Shown: positions 8,401-47,918 of the stretch, one piece after another
Layout of the letters: every line of letters starts with the position of its first letter
How positions within the stretch are numbered: the stretch's first letter is position 1
Origin: Blastocatellia bacterium
GTDB taxonomy: Bacteria; Acidobacteriota; Blastocatellia; UBA7656
DNA: 64,000 nt
Direction: 5' to 3'
Assembly (NCBI GenBank): GCA_963765495.1
Contig: CAVXWP010000007.1
Location: 704,001 to 768,000 of the forward strand
Program-made: the position numbers and the translations under genes
Notes under the pieces: model-generated
Databases searched by the model: none
What the model was told of the DNA's origin: nothing
The model's input: only the letters and a program-made list of their open reading frames with translations

Positions 8401-8495
8401 GATGCGTGATGCGTGATTCGTGATGCGTGACTTACAGGCAAGCCGTAGTTTTAAGCCAACTTGCAAACCTGCTTGCGTCACGCATCACGCATCAC
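8401..8495. repeat. GCGTGAT-heptamer fold-back element, copy 1
   Basis: (GCGTGAT)n arm, core containing CAACTTGCAAACCTGCTT, (ATCACGC)n arm. Confidence 0.9.
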
Positions 8496-21629: not shown

Positions 21630-22021
21630 TGGTTAAGAGTAAAAAGGCAAAAAAATATACTATAAGCGTAGTGGCCGAACAGTACGACGTCCACCCGCAG
21701 ACGCTTCGCCTGTACGAGCGTGAAGGGTTGATAAAGCCCGCGCGTTCGGCCAAAGGTACGCGCTATTACACCGAAGAAAACATCGAGCGGCTTGAGTTGA
21801 TACTAAACCTCACGCGCGATCTGGGCGTAAATCTGGCCGGGGTTGAGATCATACTCAACATGCGCGAACGGATGAATCAGATGCAGCGCGAATTCGAAAA
21901 CTTCCTTCAATACGTCCGCGATAACATAGAAGAAGAGATATTCGGCAAAGACGAGCGAGCAAAAAACGCTCTTGTACCGCGCCGTCGAATCGACCTGATC
22001 ATGAAGAACAGTAGGCAGTAG
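21629..22021 (+). CDS. hspR: MerR-family heat-shock repressor HspR
   Basis: YTISVVAEQYDVHPQTLRLYEREGLIKPAR...LGVNLAGV; located in the dnaK-dnaJ operon. Confidence 0.9.
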   Translation: MVKSKKAKKYTISVVAEQYDVHPQTLRLYEREGLIKPARSAKGTRYYTEENIERLELILNLTRDLGVNLAGVEIILNMRERMNQMQREFENFLQYVRDNIEEEIFGKDERAKNALVPRRRIDLIMKNSRQ

Positions 22022-22179
22022 GCAGTAAGCAGTAGGCAGTTATTTTGAAGCCAAGAACTAATCCGCGTAAATCCGCCCAATCCGCGTCATCCGTGGCCTA
22101 TTCCCAATGTTCTAATTTGGCATTTGGATAGAGAGCGATGTGTTCCCTTAAAAACTGCCTACTGCCTACCGCTTACTGC
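22009..22179. repeat. CAGTAGG-heptamer fold-back element with nested half-copy of the AATAGGCC family
   Basis: (CAGTAGG)x4 at 22009-22040, (ACTGCCT)n at 22154-22179, internal ATCCGCG...ATCCGTGGCCTATT at 22060-22102. Confidence 0.85.
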
Positions 22180-27374: not shown

Positions 27375-27477
27375 GTGATGCGTGATGCGTGATGCGTGAC
27401 TCTTGAGTAAGCCGCCTGTTAAAGCGAATTTATAAATCAGGTAAATCACGGATCACGCATCACGCATCACTAATCAC
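27375..27477. repeat. GCGTGAT-heptamer fold-back element, copy 4
   Basis: Core ACTCTTGAGTAAGCCGCCTGTTAAAG, closely matching copy 3. Confidence 0.88.
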
Positions 27478-29080: not shown

Positions 29081-30865
29081 ATGAACGAACCTCTAGATGA
29101 TCTCGATAACGTCTGTCCGAACTGCGGAAGCGGCGAAAGTGAACCTGACGCGCAATTTTGCCAGACGTGCGGCTCGCGCCTCGGGTCCCCGCTTGTATTG
29201 ACCCCGCCGCCGCCGCCGCCTTCGGATGAGGGCAAGATTGTAGCCGGGCGATTCAATATCATCTCTCTGGTGTGGACCGCGCCGACCTACAACGTCTACA
29301 GAGCGATCTCAACCGACACGCAGCAACTCTTCACGGTCATAGAACAGCAACTCGGGCCGGGTCAGCCACTGGCCGGTCTTGCCGAGATCAATGATGCGTC
29401 GGAGGTGACTCCGCCTGATGGCTCGCACGTCAAGACATCGGGCAGCCTCGAAGAAGCAGGAGCCGCCTTTGAGAGGTTCGGTTTGTTCAAACCCGTCGAA
29501 CACGCGATTGAGGATGAACATATCTTTCTGGTCTTCGAGCCTATTCAGGGCCACCCGATGGTTCACCTCGACCAGATGGACGAGAAAGAGGCTCGCGCCA
29601 TAGGGTTGCAGCTTTGCGAGCTTGCCGAGCGGTTTCATCGTCACGGATGGGTATACAACGGATTCGAGCCTTACAGCATAGTCCTGGATCAGGAAAAGCG
29701 CCCGCGTTTGATAGGCTTTGATCGCGCGCGGCAGATTGGCACACGTGTTGACTCCGCGCCGATCTATCCAAGCCGTGGCTATACGGGGCCTGAACTGTTC
29801 GAACCCGACGCCGTCTATGAAGAGACTTCGGATGTCTATTCCATAGGCGCGCTGTTGCAGTTTCTTCTCACGGGCGAAAGCCTCGGCGAAGCGGCCGGGC
29901 TTTATCCGGTGGCCACGGTCATCCCCGATTTCGAACGATTGCTTGCGCGCGCGCTGGCCGAAGACCCCGCCTCGCGCTTCCAGAGCGTTTCAGCTTTACG
30001 CACGGCCCTGACCGAGCTTAACCTGCCCGTGGTCTTGCAGTCGGGCCACTTCACCGACGTAGGGCTTGTCCGCGAATTGAACGAAGACAGCGTGCTTGCG
30101 CTCAACCTGACTCAGTACTACGAATCGGTGCAGACGCAGATAGGCGTCTATGTCGTATCGGACGGCATGGGGGGCGAGGCGGCGGGCGAAGTGGCCTCTC
30201 GCGTCACCGTGCGAGGCATAGCCGAGTGGGTGACGGAAAAACTGATATCGGCCTCGCTCAAATCAACCCGCGAAGAGAAGATAGCCGCGCCAACTCACAC
30301 GGGCGGTCTGCGTCTGGCCATTGCCGACGGCAACGATATGGCTACGACGGAGATGCTCAGGATGGCCGTCAATCACGCGAACCGCGAAGTGCTGGCCTAT
30401 GCCCGCGCAAACCCGGAGGCGCGCGGGCTCGGCGCGACAGTTACGGTAGCCATGGTCGTCGGAGACGTGCTGACCATCGCGCACGTCGGCGACAGCCGAT
30501 GTTACCTGCTTTCGCGCGACAGACTTGAGCAATTGACCGAAGATCACTCGCTTGTTCAGCGCATGGTCAACACGGGCAGCCTCTCGCGCTCTGAGGCGCG
30601 AATTCATCCTTACCGCAACGTCATCTATCGCTCGATAGGCTCGGACGAGCAGATAGAGATAGACATCATTCGGCGCAAACTCATCAACGGCGATGTCCTC
30701 ATGCTTTGCAGCGACGGGCTCAACGGCATGTTGAGCGATGATCAGATACGCGACATCCTGATGGTCAACCCGGAACCGAATCTCGCAGCAAAAGAACTCG
30801 TGGTCGCGGCCAATGCCGCAGGCGGCGAGGACAATACTTCCGTCCTCGTCGTTCGCATCGCATAA
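29081..30865 (+). CDS. Zinc-ribbon + pseudokinase + PP2C (Stp1-like) phosphatase fusion
   Basis: CPNC..CQTC ribbon; kinase-like core with SDVYSIG but degenerate catalytic motifs; PP2C motifs NED, SDGMGG, HVGDSRCY, LCSDGL, GGEDN. Confidence 0.88.
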   Translation: MNEPLDDLDNVCPNCGSGESEPDAQFCQTCGSRLGSPLVLTPPPPPPSDEGKIVAGRFNIISLVWTAPTYNVYRAISTDTQQLFTVIEQQLGPGQPLAGLAEINDASEVTPPDGSHVKTSGSLEEAGAAFERFGLFKPVEHAIEDEHIFLVFEPIQGHPMVHLDQMDEKEARAIGLQLCELAERFHRHGWVYNGFEPYSIVLDQEKRPRLIGFDRARQIGTRVDSAPIYPSRGYTGPELFEPDAVYEETSDVYSIGALLQFLLTGESLGEAAGLYPVATVIPDFERLLARALAEDPASRFQSVSALRTALTELNLPVVLQSGHFTDVGLVRELNEDSVLALNLTQYYESVQTQIGVYVVSDGMGGEAAGEVASRVTVRGIAEWVTEKLISASLKSTREEKIAAPTHTGGLRLAIADGNDMATTEMLRMAVNHANREVLAYARANPEARGLGATVTVAMVVGDVLTIAHVGDSRCYLLSRDRLEQLTEDHSLVQRMVNTGSLSRSEARIHPYRNVIYRSIGSDEQIEIDIIRRKLINGDVLMLCSDGLNGMLSDDQIRDILMVNPEPNLAAKELVVAANAAGGEDNTSVLVVRIA

Positions 30866-30886
30866 CCTTTGATCGGGCAAAGGCAG

Positions 30887-30901
30887 TGACGAATTTTGTC
30901 A
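30887..30901. promoter_or_regulatory. Imperfect palindrome, candidate enhancer (UAS) for a sigma54 activator
   Basis: TGACGAA-T-TTTGTCA, about 100 bp upstream of the -24/-12 promoter. Confidence 0.4.
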
Positions 30902-30997
30902 TGCGCTACCTTCCGTAATCTGTTACCCGCATAGAACATATATCCGCTACCCTCAAGTTTCTAAATGACTTATTACTACCCTAATTGGGTCAATAGG

Positions 30998-31014
30998 CTG
31001 GCACGAGCATTGCT
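30998..31014 (+). promoter_or_regulatory. Sigma54 (RpoN) -24/-12 promoter
   Basis: CTGGCACGAGCATTGCT matches YTGGCACG-N4-TTGCW exactly; predicted TSS near 31025. Confidence 0.8.
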
Positions 31015-31024
31015 CAATTGATAG

Positions 31025-31165
31025 ACGTAGCATAGAAAACCATTAGCGGTCGGGATCACGGGGGCGATGTCGACCGCTATTAAAAAAAAAGCAGTAAGTT
31101 GAGTTTGTAATGCAAGTCCCGGAGATCGGGATGACGGGGGCCATGCCGGTTTCCGGGGCTTGTCT
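31025..31165 (+). ncRNA. Candidate structured RNA (sRNA or leader): two hairpins with ACGGGGGC loops
   Basis: Hairpins at 31044-31079 and 31113-31162; four G.U wobbles on the + strand, shared G.G mismatch, compensatory closing pair (C-G vs G-C). Confidence 0.65.
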
Positions 31166-31239
31166 GATTGAATGAATTCCGCCACTCCGAATCGTTCCCA
31201 AGTTATCTCTTGACCCAGGAAGAAGGAAGGTATCCGACA

Positions 31240-31482
31240 ATGTTGATGAAATCCAATTTGAAAAGAGAAGTCGGTTCACTGGACATACTGATCAGCGCCA
31301 TATCCGATGAATTGACCAATCAACCTGAGCGAAGCGCGCACGCTTCTACAGAGAGCAATCTCGTCAAAGAGATGGAAGAGGCTCTTTGCGAACTGCGCCA
31401 GGCGCGTGCATACCGCAAGGTGCTGTTGAGCGTCTTCGAGAAAGAATATGACGCGGGCGAAATGAAGAATAGAGGCCACTAA
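31240..31482 (+). CDS. Small helical hypothetical protein (80 aa)
   Basis: Purine-rich RBS AGAAGGAAGG before ATG 31240; two amphipathic helices; upstream of the sigma gene. Confidence 0.6.
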
Positions 31483-31519
31483 AGATCAGGTGCTATCAAG
31501 CGGGCAGCCAATCGGCTCC

Positions 31520-31539
31520 ATATTCACGGGGGGGAATAT
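31520..31539 (+). promoter_or_regulatory. RBS hairpin with ACGGGGGG loop
   Basis: ATATTC-ACGGGGGG-GAATAT ending 5 nt before ATG 31545. Confidence 0.6.
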
Positions 31540-31544
31540 CGAAT

Positions 31545-33239
31545 ATGTCTACCATGAAACAGAGTTATCCGGGAAAATCATCAGGCTTTGTAAAATCAGG
31601 CAGCAAAGCCGCCTATCTTAACTACAACAAGAAAGATCAGATGCAATCCGCGACGATTGAAGAAGACGAAGCCGATGATCTGTCAATCACCGCGTTGGAT
31701 GATGACGCAGCCGAGGGCATCGCGCTTGAACTTGATGTGGAAGACGATAGCTCGGATGATTCAATCGAAGATGAAATCGAGGTAGACCTCTCTCTAGGCA
31801 GCAAGAACCGCACAGACGATCCGGTGCGGCTCTACATGCGCGAGATGGCAGTCGTGCCTTTGCTGACCCGCGAGGGCGAAATATCGGTTGCGCGCCGAAT
31901 CGAGCGGGGACGGCAGCGAGCCATAAAAGCGGTCTCGCGCTCGCCCATTTGCGTTGAAGAGGTATTGCAGACCGGCGACCAGTTGCGCCGCGAGAAAATC
32001 CTGATCACAGACCTTGTAAATTTCAATGATCAGGAAGGCATGACCGAGGATAGAGTCGAAGAGTACCTCGGCATTACATTGGAACAGATTGCCGAATTGA
32101 AGAAGACCTATCAGAAGGCGCTCAGACTCTACAAATCCCTGCGAGCGGAGCCGAAGCGGTCAGCAAAGATTTCTCGAATTCGCTACAGGCTTTCCCGCGT
32201 TCGCGTGGAGTTGAGCCGAAGGATGCGCGCTCTTGACCTGACCCGCCATCTGCACGAAAGACTCGTGGCCGTCATACGCGAAGAAGTCAGACGAGCGAAA
32301 CAGGCAAAAGGCGAAATCGCGGATGCGACCCTTGCGCTTGAGAAGAAGAGAAGAAAGACCGATAGCGAGCGCAAGCTGAAGCGCGACCTGCGCGAAGCTC
32401 GCCGCCGTCTGATTGAACTGGAAGATAAATGGAAGATGAGCGCCAGCGAACTAGAGCGCTCGCTTCGGACGATTACCATCGGGGATGCCGAAGCCAATCA
32501 GGCCAAGAGCGAACTGATAGAAGCAAACCTCAGGCTCGTGGTTTCGATAGCCAACAAACACACGAATCGCGGCATGCAGTTGCTCGACCTCATACAGGAA
32601 GGCAACATCGGCTTGATGAAGGCCGTAGACAAATTCGAGTGGCGTCACGGCTGCAAGTTTTCGACCTACGCGACGTGGTGGATACGTCAGGCGATAACGC
32701 GCGCCATAGCCGATCAGGCCCGCACCATAAGAATACCCGTTCACATGTTCGACACGATCAACCGTTTGAATCGCACCGCGCGCTCGCTCGTGCAGGAGCT
32801 TGGCCGCGAGCCCAGCTATGAAGAGATCGCCGCGAGAATGGAACTGCCCGTAGCAAAGGTGCGGCACATCCTGAAGATCGCGCAGCAACCCATCTCGCTT
32901 GAGACGCCCGTTGACGAAGACGAGCATTCGCATCTGAGCGACTTTATCGAAGACAAAAGGATCAACGACCCGTCGGATGCGCTGATCGGCGACAGCCTGC
33001 GCGAAGTGACCTTCGAGGCGTTGAAAGCGCTCACGCCGCGTGAAGAGAAAGTCATCAAGATGCGGTTCGGGCTCTCGTCAAACGGCAACGAGCACACGCT
33101 CGAAGAGGTAGGCCATTACTTTTCGGTAACGCGCGAGCGCGTACGCCAGATCGAATCAAAGGCACTCGGCAAGCTTGGAAGAGTTGCCCGCTCTCGGAAA
33201 CTGAGATCGTTTCTGGAAGGGTCAAGACTCTGCGGTTAG
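31545..33239 (+). CDS. RNA polymerase sigma70 factor, RpoD paralogue (group 1/2-like)
   Basis: [11 protein letters not shown] (1.2), [17 protein letters not shown] (2.2), [35 protein letters not shown]...[10 protein letters not shown] (4.2). No dnaG upstream; several non-canonical substitutions. Confidence 0.92.
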
Positions 33240-33529: not shown

Positions 33530-35728
33530 GTGAGCCTGCCCAATCCGGCGACCGTTCATGTCTTTGTAAGTTCTACGTGGCTCGACCTAAAGCCTGAGCG
33601 CCGGGCCGTGCTCGATGCCTTGCAACGGATACGCGAGACGAAGTACAACGGGATGGAGCACTTCGGCAGCCGCGATGAAACCACCGCCCGCGTCTCTGTA
33701 GATGAAGTGGACCGCAGTCAGCTTTATCTGGGCATCTTCGGCGGGCGATATGGTTCGGGCATCACAGAGAAGGAATACCGCCGAGCGCGCGAGTTGAATC
33801 TGACTTGCCTGATCTATTTCAAAGATGAAGAGCAAATTACCGAACGCGACCCCGAGCCTGAAAAGGCACAGCAATTGGCCGAGTTAATGGCCGAGTTGCG
33901 AGGCAATCACGATGTTTCACTTTTTACATCACCCGAAGACCTCGCCTTCAAAGCGACATCCGATTTGCACCGATGGCTATTTGATAATTACCTCCCCGAC
34001 AGATTGAAAGAAGTTATGCGGGGTACCGCGCCCAAAGGGGAAGCCGAAGCCCTGCTTTCCGGGATCAAGAATTTAGACGATTTAGATCAAAGATTATTAT
34101 CGCAACTCCGGCAGGCGGGTTTAATCATCGCCCCCGGCAGAGATTACATTGGGCGCGACCAGACAACCAACATTTACAATGTGCCTGTACCGACGATTAA
34201 CGCGCTGTATCAACTGCCGCCGCCTCGTGATTTCACAGGCCGCAAAGAAGAGTTGACCGAGTTGATGGGCAAACTCAAATCAGGAGGTGTGAACATCTCC
34301 GGCCTTCGCAGGCTTGGCGGCATAGGCAAGACCGCGCTCGCCTTAAAGCTTGCCGAGCAACTGGCTGCACGCTACCCTGACGCGCAGTTCTATCTCGATT
34401 TGAAGGGAGTCAGTTCCCGGCCCCTGACCGCAGGCGAAGCGATGGCGCACGTCATCCGAGCCTATCACCCTACGGCGAAACTCCCCGAAGGCGAAGCGGA
34501 GTTGCGCGGCATTTACATGACCGTGCTTCACAATCAGCGGGCGTTGTTGCTGATGGACAACGCAAAGGAGCGTTCGCAGGTAGAGCCGTTGATACCGCCT
34601 GATAGTTGCGTGCTGCTCGTCACGTCTCGCAGCCGCTTTCACTTGTCCGGCTTGTTTGCAAAGGATTTGGATGCGCTGCCTCTGGAAGATGCCCGTGCAT
34701 TGCTGCTCACCATCGCGCCACGCATAGAGGAACATGCCGATACGATAGCGAACCTCTGCGGCTGCCTGCCTCTTGCTTTGCAGGTAACAGCGAGCGCCAT
34801 CGCAGAGCACATTGACATAAGCCCGACGGATTACGCCCGGCGGCTCGCGGATGCAAAACATCGACTTGAATTGATAGATGCCTCGCTCAGCTTGAGCTAC
34901 GAGTTGTTGAGCAAAGAGATGCAGAGATTATGGCGCTTGCTCGCGGTCTTCCCTGATACTTTCGACAGGGAAGCTGTCGCGGCAATCTGGGAAATGGAGC
35001 CTGAAGCGGCGCAAGAATCATTAAGCGCGCTTGTGACTTACAGCCTCGTGGAGTACGACCCGCCAACCACCCGTTACAGTTTGCATGACCTCGCCCGCGT
35101 TTTTACGGATGACCGTCTGAACGAAGCCGAGCGAACCGATGCCAAAAGACTTCACGCCTCGCATTTTCTGAGCGTACTCAGAAAATCAGGACGGCTTTAC
35201 TCGCAAGGCGGAGAAGCAATCAAACAAGGGCTGACTTCATTTGATCTGGAATTGACCAATATTGAAGCAGGGCAATCGTGGTCTGAGAAACACGCTGATG
35301 AAGATGAAGCCGCCGCCAGATATTGCAGCGACTATCCTAGTGTGGCGGGAATCTTGCTCAATCTACGCCAATCTCCTCGCGAGCGTATACGTTGGCTTGA
35401 GCCTGCATTGGTCTGCGCCCGGCGCTTGAAGGATCAATCTGATGAGGGAATCCATCTAGGCAACCTGGGCCTAGCATACTACAACTTGGGAGAAGTGAGA
35501 CGAGCAATCGAGTTCTACGAACAGCGTCTTGTCATAGCCCGGGAGATAGGAGACCGGCGAGGCGAAGGCACCGTGCTTTGGAACATGAGCCTAGTTTTTG
35601 ATAAACTCGGTGACCGCGCTCAAGCAATTGCTTGCGCGGAAGCCTCGCTAAAAATTAGAGAGGAAATTGAAGACCCAAGGGCCGCCAAGGTGCGCGAGCG
35701 GTTAGCTGAGTGGCGCGGGGAGGAATAG
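33530..35728 (+). CDS. DUF4062 - NB-ARC/STAND NTPase - TPR protein (NLR-like)
   Basis: GGAGG RBS plus GTG start; VFVSSTWLDLKPER (DUF4062), FTGRKEEL, GGIGKT, LLLMDN, VTSR, GCLPLAL, LHDL, TPR_12-type GNLGLAYYNLG...AREIGDRRGEG. Confidence 0.88.
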   Translation: MSLPNPATVHVFVSSTWLDLKPERRAVLDALQRIRETKYNGMEHFGSRDETTARVSVDEVDRSQLYLGIFGGRYGSGITEKEYRRARELNLTCLIYFKDEEQITERDPEPEKAQQLAELMAELRGNHDVSLFTSPEDLAFKATSDLHRWLFDNYLPDRLKEVMRGTAPKGEAEALLSGIKNLDDLDQRLLSQLRQAGLIIAPGRDYIGRDQTTNIYNVPVPTINALYQLPPPRDFTGRKEELTELMGKLKSGGVNISGLRRLGGIGKTALALKLAEQLAARYPDAQFYLDLKGVSSRPLTAGEAMAHVIRAYHPTAKLPEGEAELRGIYMTVLHNQRALLLMDNAKERSQVEPLIPPDSCVLLVTSRSRFHLSGLFAKDLDALPLEDARALLLTIAPRIEEHADTIANLCGCLPLALQVTASAIAEHIDISPTDYARRLADAKHRLELIDASLSLSYELLSKEMQRLWRLLAVFPDTFDREAVAAIWEMEPEAAQESLSALVTYSLVEYDPPTTRYSLHDLARVFTDDRLNEAERTDAKRLHASHFLSVLRKSGRLYSQGGEAIKQGLTSFDLELTNIEAGQSWSEKHADEDEAAARYCSDYPSVAGILLNLRQSPRERIRWLEPALVCARRLKDQSDEGIHLGNLGLAYYNLGEVRRAIEFYEQRLVIAREIGDRRGEGTVLWNMSLVFDKLGDRAQAIACAEASLKIREEIEDPRAAKVRERLAEWRGEE

Positions 35729-47801: not shown

Positions 47802-47816
47802 AGAGATACGCTCGCC

Positions 47817-47918
47817 GATGCGCGATGCGCGATGCGTGATACGCGATCTTACAAGGGACTTGCCTGTTAAAAACAACTTGCAAGCCTGCTTTCGTCACGC
47901 ATCACGCATCACGTTTCA
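47817..47918. repeat. GCGTGAT-heptamer fold-back element, copy 5
   Basis: Arms plus core GCCTGTTAAAAACAACTTGCAAGCCTGCTT. Confidence 0.85.

Follow-up and report, generated by a model that had tools for sequence, protein, structure and literature searches.

Twin G-loop RNAs, a multi-copy family of structured sRNAs in an uncultured Blastocatellia lineage, with one copy likely to lead an rpoD-paralogue operon

CsrB, RsmY and RsmZ are protein sponges that carry ANGGA motifs in their hairpin loops and are encoded by several RNA genes per genome. ANTAR targets are built from dual hexaloop hairpins, the second of which competes with a terminator. The Qrr RNAs depend on LuxO and Hfq and act through a conserved single-stranded seed, and a palindromic activator (GlrR) site lies ~100 nt upstream of GlmY and GlmZ. 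Qrr1-5 of Vibrio are described in PMC3730234 as multi-copy sigma54-dependent base-pairing sRNAs, and GlmY and GlmZ in PMC7073468 as homologous sigma54-dependent sRNAs of which GlmY serves as a decoy for RapZ. In sRNAs of the 6C, sX13 and RsaE type, C-rich loops are described as pairing with G-rich RBSs (PMC6486639, PMC3771888).

The locus considered here lies in a 64 kb stretch of DNA from a Blastocatellia bacterium (Acidobacteriota), the whole of which was analysed and is called the window below. Few soil bacteria are as abundant as the Acidobacteriota, yet to our knowledge their RNA regulators are almost entirely uncharacterised; the literature yielded no paper on Blastocatellia sRNAs, and unnamed Acidobacteria motifs could in principle stand in Weinberg-paper supplements. 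The hairpins of the window are one copy of a hitherto undescribed multi-copy family of structured sRNAs, for which we propose the name twin G-loop RNAs and which offers a testable way into post-transcriptional control in an uncultured lineage. That the family as a whole is new, sigma54-dependent, built on the G-loop architecture and confined, as far as searched, to one uncultured soil family of Blastocatellia appears almost certain.

The window copy is read from the + strand. A sigma54 -24/-12 promoter, TGGCACGAGCATTGCT, occupies 30999-31014, and its spacing places the probable start near 31025. G-loop hairpin 1 (31044-31079) carries the loop ACGGGGGC at 31058-31065 on 3 bp, a G.G mismatch and a 10-bp outer stem, and is followed by an A-rich linker (31080-31112) that diverges from the family consensus; G-loop hairpin 2 (31113-31162) carries the same loop at 31134-31141 on 3 bp, a G.G mismatch and 17 pairs below. 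In both hairpins the mismatch stands at the fourth position below the loop, and pairing by hand gives four G.U/U.G wobble pairs in total. The 14-mer GGGATSACGGGGGC has exact matches in the window only at hairpins 1 and 2, and RNAfold places both hairpins in the MFE and centroid structures (z = -2.41 for 231 nt). The promoter is likewise singular, for apart from its TGGCAC-N5-TTGC at 30999-31014 the 64 kb hold no exact match to TGGCACNNNNNTTGCW; with one mismatch allowed, the window holds 5 promoter-like sites against 1.69 expected. No sigma70-like promoter and no terminator was called in 30850-31650. Thus the main features of the original prediction, a perfect -24/-12 promoter and twin hairpins with an identical 8-nt loop, a G.G mismatch and four G.U pairs, were all found in the sequence, and its expectation of an empty Rfam search also held: Rfam 15 gave 0 matches at the gathering threshold in the 64 kb window, with Acido-1 (RF01686), Acido-Lenti-1 (RF01687), Qrr, 6C, CsrB/Rsm and GlmY/Z among the families below threshold. 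Three matches to 30900-31600 at E<=10 are at chance level (16-18 bits), and a single match among four paralogue loci at E<=1, to 5.8S rRNA, is also attributed to chance.

The window copy does not stand alone. The plan common to the hairpins comprises an 8-nt loop ANGGGGGC, 3 covarying bp, a purine-purine mismatch and a long covarying stem, and 11 hairpins true to this architecture occur in the genome of origin, all 11 of them inside six sigma54-driven RNA copies; control loop sequences yield 0-4 such hairpins. A covariance model search found copies in 36/36 genomes of the same family, 1-6 in each, and no true copy in 24 genomes from other families of the class, the sister family included (0/5). 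A weak match in one of the 19 other genomes of the class (G056) was rejected as coding sequence without a G-loop. When all species genomes were scanned with the exact pattern, 71 stretches were recovered, of which 68 were confirmed by the covariance model; the 3 unconfirmed matches, in MAGs titled Desulfacyla, Dormibacteraceae and Roseovarius, are taken as chance. Seven confirmed stretches (79-139 bits) come from MAGs titled 'uncultured Clostridia bacterium', and 4/7 of these have radA/PIN-TRAM neighbours. The synteny of family copies is kept across genera; the type A copy lies between radA and a PIN-TRAM gene and is convergent with its neighbour. The original prediction, which described one locus, real as such, had missed the six paralogues as well as the 80-aa ORF and the hairpin-free operon of one genus that are described below.

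The strongest evidence for a structured RNA comes from covariation, which recurs in the hairpins of 79 distinct homologous RNAs. In a 71-sequence alignment, 94.8% of cells are paired and compensatory changes are seen in 37/38 pairs, values to be read in the knowledge that the alignments were fitted to the covariance model, which favours structure; de novo folding of 4 paralogues with RNAalifold agrees. None of 500 shuffles paired as well and slid controls reached 32-53%, so that compensatory change stands above the controls, as expected of a structured non-coding RNA. Family helix 2, which corresponds to hairpin 1, has compensatory changes in 14/14 pairs with 96.6% of cells paired, and helix 3, which corresponds to hairpin 2, in 18/19. 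The loop ANGGGGGC is present in 156/156 hairpins, an invariance that is partly built in, since the loops were a requirement of the pattern scan and part of what the model was trained on; in 148/156 the fourth position below the loop is G.G or G.A, while the upper stem takes 20 different forms and the loop-to-loop spacing runs from 65 to 81 nt. The linker, consensus ACUGAGAGAAGCGACAGAC, is single-stranded, purine-rich and conserved in the family. Covariation and frequent G.U pairs, with which the orientation of the promoter agrees, argue for selection at the RNA level on the + strand, in line with what had been proposed from the window copy. They also bear on whether the palindromes are a DNA-level repeat (REP-like, or the end of a mobile element) or a product of chance. 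Hairpin-forming repeats are common in intergenic DNA and this genome has many heptamer repeats, but just 11 hairpins are at issue, each behind a sigma54 promoter and in syntenic positions kept across genera, and their stems differ in sequence yet covary, with G.U pairs confined to one strand. The DNA-repeat reading is refuted by the covarying stems, and what chance we leave it is negligible.

Several features are shared with described systems. Twin G-loop RNAs resemble Qrr1-5 in having several paralogous sRNA genes with their own sigma54 promoters, a shared putative activator site upstream and a predicted 3' terminator hairpin, and in a regulatory cascade that may feed a master regulator; the two groups have no similarity in sequence or structure, however, for twin G-loops are two identical apical loops on a mismatch platform, and one copy is fused to an operon leader. 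With GlmY/GlmZ they have in common paralogous sigma54-dependent sRNAs, a palindromic site ~100 nt upstream and, if the reading favoured below is right, a protein decoy recognised by structure, whereas sequence, structure and taxon are unrelated. The likeness to CsrB/RsmY/RsmZ lies in SD-like loop motifs (A-N-G-G...), several sites per RNA and several genes, the differences in the motif displayed (ANGGGGGC rather than ANGGA), in the two sites per RNA and in the type of promoter. The tandem arrangement of hairpins that share a loop consensus, with a terminator linked to the second, recalls ANTAR targets, but the loops are of 8 nt and hairpin 2 would itself be the terminator. Finally, 6C (Actinobacteria), sX13 (Xanthomonas) and RsaE/RoxS (Firmicutes) share with the present family a repeated homopolymer-rich loop motif, invariant loops and covarying stems; their loops are C-rich, and the twin G-loops, G-rich and SD-like, are the mirror image, set apart further by the G.R mismatch and the sigma54 promoter. 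The recognition element, G-rich SD-like loops on a conserved mismatch, is thus an unusual one, with a natural fused version before a duplicated rpoD, and the RNAs may represent either a decoy system that works without CsrA or the first G-loop counterpart, in mirror image, of the C-loop sRNAs.

The fused version is that of the window. A conserved 80-aa ORF (31240-31482, + strand) is the first gene of the operon; by tblastn it also precedes the sigma paralogue in 8 other genomes, and it matched no NCBIfam or Pfam family. The rpoD paralogue itself (31545-33239, + strand, 564 aa) scores as RpoD family, with 556.7 bits against NF004208 (cut-off 555), in a genome with three RpoD-like genes. Every relative has one slow-evolving RpoD, of which this gene is not an ortholog. 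In the tree, window-type sigma factors form a 100/100 clade of 10 on long branches, nested among the housekeeping RpoDs of the family, and the C7:195881 copy of the same genome falls among the short-branched housekeeping RpoDs. The gene had been proposed to encode an alternative sigma factor, and the tree bears this out to the extent that it is an extra rpoD paralogue, a fast-evolving lineage-specific duplicate, and not the housekeeping copy. The RNA module stands upstream of the operon in 7/9 evaluable loci. In genus g7 the same promoter lies directly before the ORF with no hairpins between, and the leader module is therefore dispensable there.

Most copies of the family are stand-alone genes in which hairpin 2 and a U-tail are predicted to end the transcript. 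The leader copies differ at this point: a T-run of at least 4 after hairpin 2 is found in 0/11 of them versus 29/67 stand-alone copies, and terminator-like sites, called at 3/4 of the stand-alone copies examined, were not called at the window copy, whose U-tail is weak. Given this weak tail, transcription in the window probably yields both a short RNA and a read-through mRNA, the 3' end and the read-through being deduced from sequence. We consider it likely, on the whole, that the 80-aa ORF and the rpoD duplicate form a sigma54-dependent operon with the module in its 5' leader, and that the RNAs and the extra sigma factor are under common control; a single sigma54 control module would then serve both sRNA gene and sigma-factor operon. 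The same arrangement could be a purely cis-acting leader, an attenuator or riboswitch-like element that gates the ORF-sigma operon, and its position between promoter and operon in those 7/9 loci and the resemblance of hairpin 2 to a terminator with a weakened tail would suit such a role. For most family members, however, there is no gene that a leader could regulate, type A is convergent with its neighbour, genus g7 manages without the module, and the leader offers the loops no alternative pairing partner, so that a purely cis-acting function seems improbable.

The original prediction went further, in taking the loops for mimics of the sigma gene's RBS hairpin that titrate a translational repressor in a Csr-like circuit. 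The third hairpin on which this was founded, ATATTC-ACGGGGGG-GAATAT (31520-31539, + strand), does surround the sigma SD 5 nt before the ATG at 31545, the RBS ACGGGGGGG lying inside a possible 6-bp hairpin, and the loops of the RNAs are indeed SD-like; in one orthologue, L118, the SD is also CACGGGGG. Comparison of 8 orthologous operons does not uphold it as a conserved functional element. The sigma SD reads ACAGGAG in 5/8 and otherwise AUAGGAG or UAGGAGGAG, CACGGGGG being restricted to L118, so that AGGAG-type SDs prevail in 7/8, and no conserved stem surrounds it in the 8 orthologues. The window hairpin lacks the family architecture, and a 60-nt fold prefers another structure; the hairpin is probably specific to the species and no part of the RNA system. 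Moreover, RNA copies occur in 36/36 genomes, the sigma paralogue in only 10/25 of the same-family genomes searched for it, and CsrA (PF02599) has 0 matches in the genome of origin (97.9% complete), the E. coli, B. subtilis and T. maritima controls being positive. The regulon of ACGGGGG-loop hairpins at start codons that had been anticipated did not materialize: among 470 sites in this genome, 83 have a stem of at least 3 bp and only that of the sigma gene is at a start, ACGGGGGC is not enriched near starts, and a full-architecture scan placed every G-loop hairpin within the six RNA genes and none at mRNA starts. A decoy would therefore mimic nothing visible in the mRNAs of this genome. The RBS-mimic circuit is largely refuted by comparison, and we hold it very unlikely; a Csr-like decoy logic might operate with another protein.

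What the loops bind may be approached from the complements of the RNAs and from the proteins encoded in the genome. Hfq is present; ProQ was not found, and PF03861 (ANTAR) had no match in this genome, a search in which the control genomes were silent too. Twin G-loop RNAs could be base-pairing sRNAs whose G-rich loops, and perhaps the linker, pair with C/U-rich mRNA sites or with a C-rich sRNA, helped by Hfq. An Hfq-dependent sRNA fits Hfq, the U-tails of the stand-alone copies and the conserved purine-rich linker as well as a protein decoy does, and there are precedents in 6C, with repeated identical C-rich loops as seeds (PMC6486639), and in the multi-copy sigma54-dependent Qrr1-5 (PMC3730234). 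Yet the loop complement GCCCCCKU is not enriched near starts (0.107-0.108 versus 0.074-0.11 for control words) or in crude intergenic DNA (78 sites, as many as its own reverse complement has, against 85 and 115 with two control words), the linker complement with <=3 mismatches has no plausible site in this genome outside RNA genes, and no recurrent C-loop RNA (hairpins with C5 loops) was found, all of these being weak negatives that depend on crude ORF maps. Nor is it obvious what the conserved G.R mismatch would contribute to pairing. Base pairing is given a real but minor chance. A protein partner is weakly favoured over it, since hairpins recognised by proteins typically combine an invariant loop, free at position 2, with a conserved non-canonical mismatch at a set distance from it, and since G-rich seeds would be uncommon in base pairing.

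In the protein-based mechanism, to which we tentatively accord somewhat less than an even chance, the RNAs would be trans-acting, and an RNA-binding protein would dock on their two invariant, SD-like G-loops; the RNAs would be its decoy or its handle, with capacity provided by 11 sites per genome. Through the leader copy, the sigma operon would be coupled to this RNA-binding factor as well, and the sigma RBS hairpin would take no part. A more specific version, which we rate as unlikely, would be a Csr-like post-transcriptional system assembled from unrelated parts in a lineage without CsrA: the regulator would recognise ANGGGGGC loops on their platform of 3 bp and a G.R mismatch, four to six sigma54-induced RNAs would titrate it in response to a signal sensed by one enhancer-binding protein, and the leader fusion would make expression of the extra sigma factor depend on the free regulator pool.

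Control of the family by sigma54 is suggested by a promoter element at equal distance in all aligned RNA homologues and in 9/9 orthologous operons; together with rpoN (C12:139348) and 31 PF00158 enhancer-binding proteins in the genome of origin, TGGCAC-N5-TTGC at this conserved distance marks the RNAs as probable sigma54-dependent genes. None of the 31 enhancer-binding proteins is encoded within 5 kb of the RNA genes, the nearest being 6.5 kb from the C8 copy. In the window, a putative enhancer (UAS) comprising the palindrome TGACGAATTTTGTCA (30887-30901) and TGTTACC (30921-30927) lies on the + strand ~100 nt upstream of the promoter, and the inverted repeat CTACCCTAATTGGGTC (30976-30991, + strand) is found directly upstream of the -24 element. 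The corresponding motif TGACR-N4-7-T[GT][GT]YA, which was derived from the same family sequences in which it was counted, occurs in 65/76 family upstream regions versus 0/67 other sigma54-like sites of this genome, and ACCY-N4-6-RGG within 50 nt upstream of the promoter in 64/76 family members versus 2/67. The C8 and C15 copies of the same genome are without the shared upstream motifs. One arrangement of enhancer and inverted repeat is common to most copies, and it is therefore probable that a single enhancer-binding protein controls the RNAs and the extra sigma factor alike. A defined class of promoter and a common enhancer complete the picture of a clean, strongly covarying, multi-copy family. 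An extra sigma54 site with a similar inverted repeat and no G-loop lies at C2:265544, before a gene for a secreted protein.

The window copy of the twin G-loop RNA comprises a sigma54 -24/-12 promoter (TGGCACGAGCATTGCT, 30999-31014, + strand), the only exact match within the window, and two long hairpins on the same strand (31044-31079 and 31113-31162), both kept in the RNAfold MFE and centroid structures. The hairpins have the same loop, ACGGGGGC, both stems carry a G.G mismatch at position four below it, and apart from this they depart from Watson-Crick pairing only in four G.U/U.G wobbles on the + strand. All of these elements of the original prediction are present in the sequence, as is its third hairpin, a short AT-stem structure (31520-31539, + strand) that encloses a G-rich Shine-Dalgarno (SD) and ends 5 nt before the sigma-gene ATG. 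As it had also anticipated, Rfam 15 yielded zero matches across the whole window at gathering thresholds, and no credible match around the twin-hairpin element at permissive ones.

The common design, a sigma54 promoter followed after ~45 nt by one or more hairpins with the window-copy loop, recurs elsewhere in the same genome (7.3 Mb scanned, 97.9% complete), and the window RNA is one of six paralogues. Twin hairpins are found at C1:952,293-952,462, at C1:817,688-817,846, where loop 2 is AGGGGGGC, and at C9:169,019-169,177, where loop 1 is AAGGGGGC; the copy at C8:348,9xx has one hairpin. The paralogues have unlike stem sequences, and RNAalifold finds compensatory change in 23 of 43 pairs of the four twin copies. 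A covariance model trained on these four (R1) gives them 162-173 bits, against 38.6 bits for the single-hairpin copy. The sixth RNA (C15:33,106-33,430; L146:1607-1931) is longer (~300 nt). Its parts are a sigma54 promoter, an extra 5' domain, two G-loop hairpins 137 nt apart (loops AUGGGGGC and AAGGGGGC), the linker typical of the family and a strong, separate terminator. R1 missed this RNA, all of which points to a modular family with more members than the twin model picks up. Terminator-like sites were called at three of four stand-alone copies (RNA genes by themselves) tested in this genome. A strict architecture scan of the genome (an ANGGGGGC loop, 3 bp, one free position, then the outer stem) returned exactly 11 hairpins with an outer stem of at least 7 pairs, the free position being a purine-purine mismatch. 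In one further candidate the stem has 4 pairs and the mismatch is U.U. With six control loop words the scan gave 0-4 hairpins. All 11 fall inside the six RNAs, so the proposed regulon of G-loop hairpins at start codons did not materialize.

Selection on RNA structure, read from the + strand, was borne out. Among 71 aligned matches, standard pairs occupy 94.8% of cells and compensatory change occurs in 37 of 38 pairs; none of 500 shuffles reaches any observed measure, and pairing falls to 32-53% when the 3' partners are slid. A smaller, pattern-independent set of 34 agrees with this result, and the frequent G.U pairs on the promoter strand indicate that the RNA is read from that strand. Across 156 hairpins from 79 distinct RNAs, the loops are ACGGGGGC (135), AAGGGGGC (15), AUGGGGGC (5) and AGGGGGGC (1), an invariance that is partly ascertainment because the pattern scan required, and the model was trained on, these loops. 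The fourth position below the loop is G.G in 137 cases and G.A in 11, the upper stem takes 20 distinct 3-bp forms, and loop-to-loop spacing is 65-81 nt. These RNAs are thus a structured, strand-specific, multi-copy family behind sigma54 promoters.

The covariance-model search proposed at the outset, run with R1 in 60 relatives, recovered 1-6 copies per genome in 36/36 same-family genomes (19 further genera) and no copy in five sister-family genomes. A single weak match (39.9 bits), in the 19 genomes taken from elsewhere in the class, was rejected as coding sequence without the G-loop. Scanning 185,579 species, one genome each, for an exact pattern (the promoter and two ANGGGGGC loops at set distances) gave 71 stretches, 68 of them confirmed by R1; the three unconfirmed ones, from unrelated taxa, were taken as chance. 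Confirmed records are titled as Blastocatellia or Acidobacteriota MAGs, with seven exceptions that bear the title 'uncultured Clostridia bacterium'; in four of these exceptions the RNA has the radA/PIN-TRAM neighbours. Tandem pairs of the RNA gene, 456-537 nt apart with one promoter per gene, occur in three MAG contigs (L078:842-1525, L089:6693-7399, L103:1269-1897).

In the window, an 80-aa ORF (31240-31482, + strand) that matches no known family and was overlooked by the original prediction lies between hairpin 2 and a sigma-70-family gene scoring as RpoD (31545-33239, + strand). The genome has three RpoD-like genes. In a tree, window-type sigmas form a 100/100 clade of ten on long branches, nested among the family's housekeeping RpoDs, whereas the RpoD at C7:195,881 sits among the latter on a short branch; the window gene is accordingly a lineage-specific, fast-evolving duplicate, present in 10 of 25 family genomes searched. 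The ORF precedes it in 9/9 loci with upstream DNA available, and the model finds the RNA module before the ORF in seven of the nine, one of which keeps the G-loop in hairpin 1 only. The two genomes of one genus (g7) have the same promoter (CTGGCACACCTGTTGCT) ~45 nt before the ORF and the same upstream motifs, with zero hairpins. Neither a sigma70-like promoter nor a terminator-like site was called in 30850-31650, and a T-run of at least 4 within 12 nt after hairpin 2 is found in 0/11 leader-type copies versus 29/67 stand-alone ones. On our reading of these sequences, the sigma54 promoter would drive the ORF-sigma operon, and the G-loop module would be an sRNA gene fused into the operon leader, its terminator weakened. 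The upstream neighbour (29081-30865) encodes a 594-aa fusion of an N-terminal zinc-ribbon-like segment, a kinase-like region and a C-terminal PP2C phosphatase (235.7 bits against the Stp1/IreP model, cut-off 230); in another locus (L117) the operon promoter likewise follows directly on the 3' end of this gene, so the phosphatase may be a conserved neighbour. Downstream, 33530-35728 encodes a 732-aa STAND-type protein, which AfsR/SARP-like NB-ARC and TPR models match in part, every score falling far short of its cut-off.

Most of the promoters share further DNA. Of 76 upstream regions, 65 have a palindrome, TGACR-N4-7-TGTYA, ~60-110 nt ahead of the -24 element, 64 have an inverted repeat, ACCY-N4-6-RGG, that adjoins the -24 box, and 57 have both. 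Of 67 TGGCAY-N5-TTGC sites elsewhere in the genome, none has the palindrome, 2 have the inverted repeat and none has both. Since the motifs were derived from the same sequences, many of them orthologues, these counts speak to specificity and are not independent support. The C8 and C15 copies have neither motif. The shared motifs suggest that one activator probably has the RNAs and the additional sigma factor as its regulon; the genome encodes rpoN and 31 enhancer-binding proteins, none of which adjoins an RNA gene. A gene for a 215-aa GerE/LuxR-type HTH protein (L008:1335-1982) often precedes the C1:817,688-type copy (13 of 100 loci) and could encode a regulator linked to it. A further sigma54-like promoter (C2:265518-265560), with a similar ACCY-N5-GGG repeat just upstream and no G-loop hairpin, precedes a ~208-aa secreted-protein gene.

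The proposal that the loops mimic the RBS hairpin of the sigma gene fails on comparison. The sigma-gene SD varies among eight orthologous operons (ACAGGAG in five; AUAGGAG, UAGGAGGAG and CACGGGGG in one each), folds of these operons reveal no conserved hairpin around it, and the window's AT-stem hairpin lacks the family architecture. In addition, ACGGGGGC is unenriched near start codons, and CsrA is undetectable in this genome, with control genomes positive. The alternative of a cis leader switch is countered by the stand-alone copies, which have no downstream gene in the same orientation, excluding a purely cis role for the family; the type A copy has radA on one side and a PIN-TRAM gene on the other (neighbours at 36 and 42 of 100 loci, respectively) and is convergent with its neighbour.

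The invariant loops would be the functional end of the RNAs. A protein partner is weakly favoured, tentatively: the loop is invariant apart from one free position and a conserved purine-purine mismatch stands at a set distance from it, both hallmarks of protein-recognised hairpins; two sites lie at constrained spacing, with 11 sites per genome; and the motif is SD-like, as a decoy for a translational regulator should be. In the main rival, which is somewhat less likely, Hfq would help the G-loops, or the linker ACUGAGAGAAGCGACAGAC, to pair with C/U-rich RNA: Hfq is present (ProQ was not found) and the linker is conserved, but crude complementarity scans found no targets, which argues weakly against it. 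Such G-loops would mirror the 6C sRNA, whose C-rich loops pair with G-rich RBSs (PMC6486639).

Several known systems bear a likeness. Qrr1-5 are likewise sigma54-dependent and multi-copy, GlmY/GlmZ are similar in logic (sigma54-dependent, with a decoy), CsrB/Rsm sponges have SD-like loops but another loop code, and 6C, sX13 and RsaE share a repeated loop motif of opposite composition. Without an Rfam match or CsrA, and with a different loop code and composition, the twin G-loop RNAs belong to none of these. The literature searched, supplements aside, held no account of such RNAs in Blastocatellia or Acidobacteria, and we rate them as a new RNA family, with a mechanism that is potentially more novel.

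The window also contains short tandem arrays of 7-nt units (AGTTTTG, TCAAAAC, GATGCGT, CAGTAGG, GTGATGC and CGATGCG; 3.6-5.7 copies each) at 2710-2742, 2760-2799, 8401-8430, 22009-22040, 27375-27399 and 47816-47847. In relatives, many RNA loci are flanked by similar heptamer arrays (AAATCCA, CTGACTT and CCCCGGC types), which are also spread over the genome of the window. The arrays are reminiscent of cyanobacterial heptamer STRR repeats.
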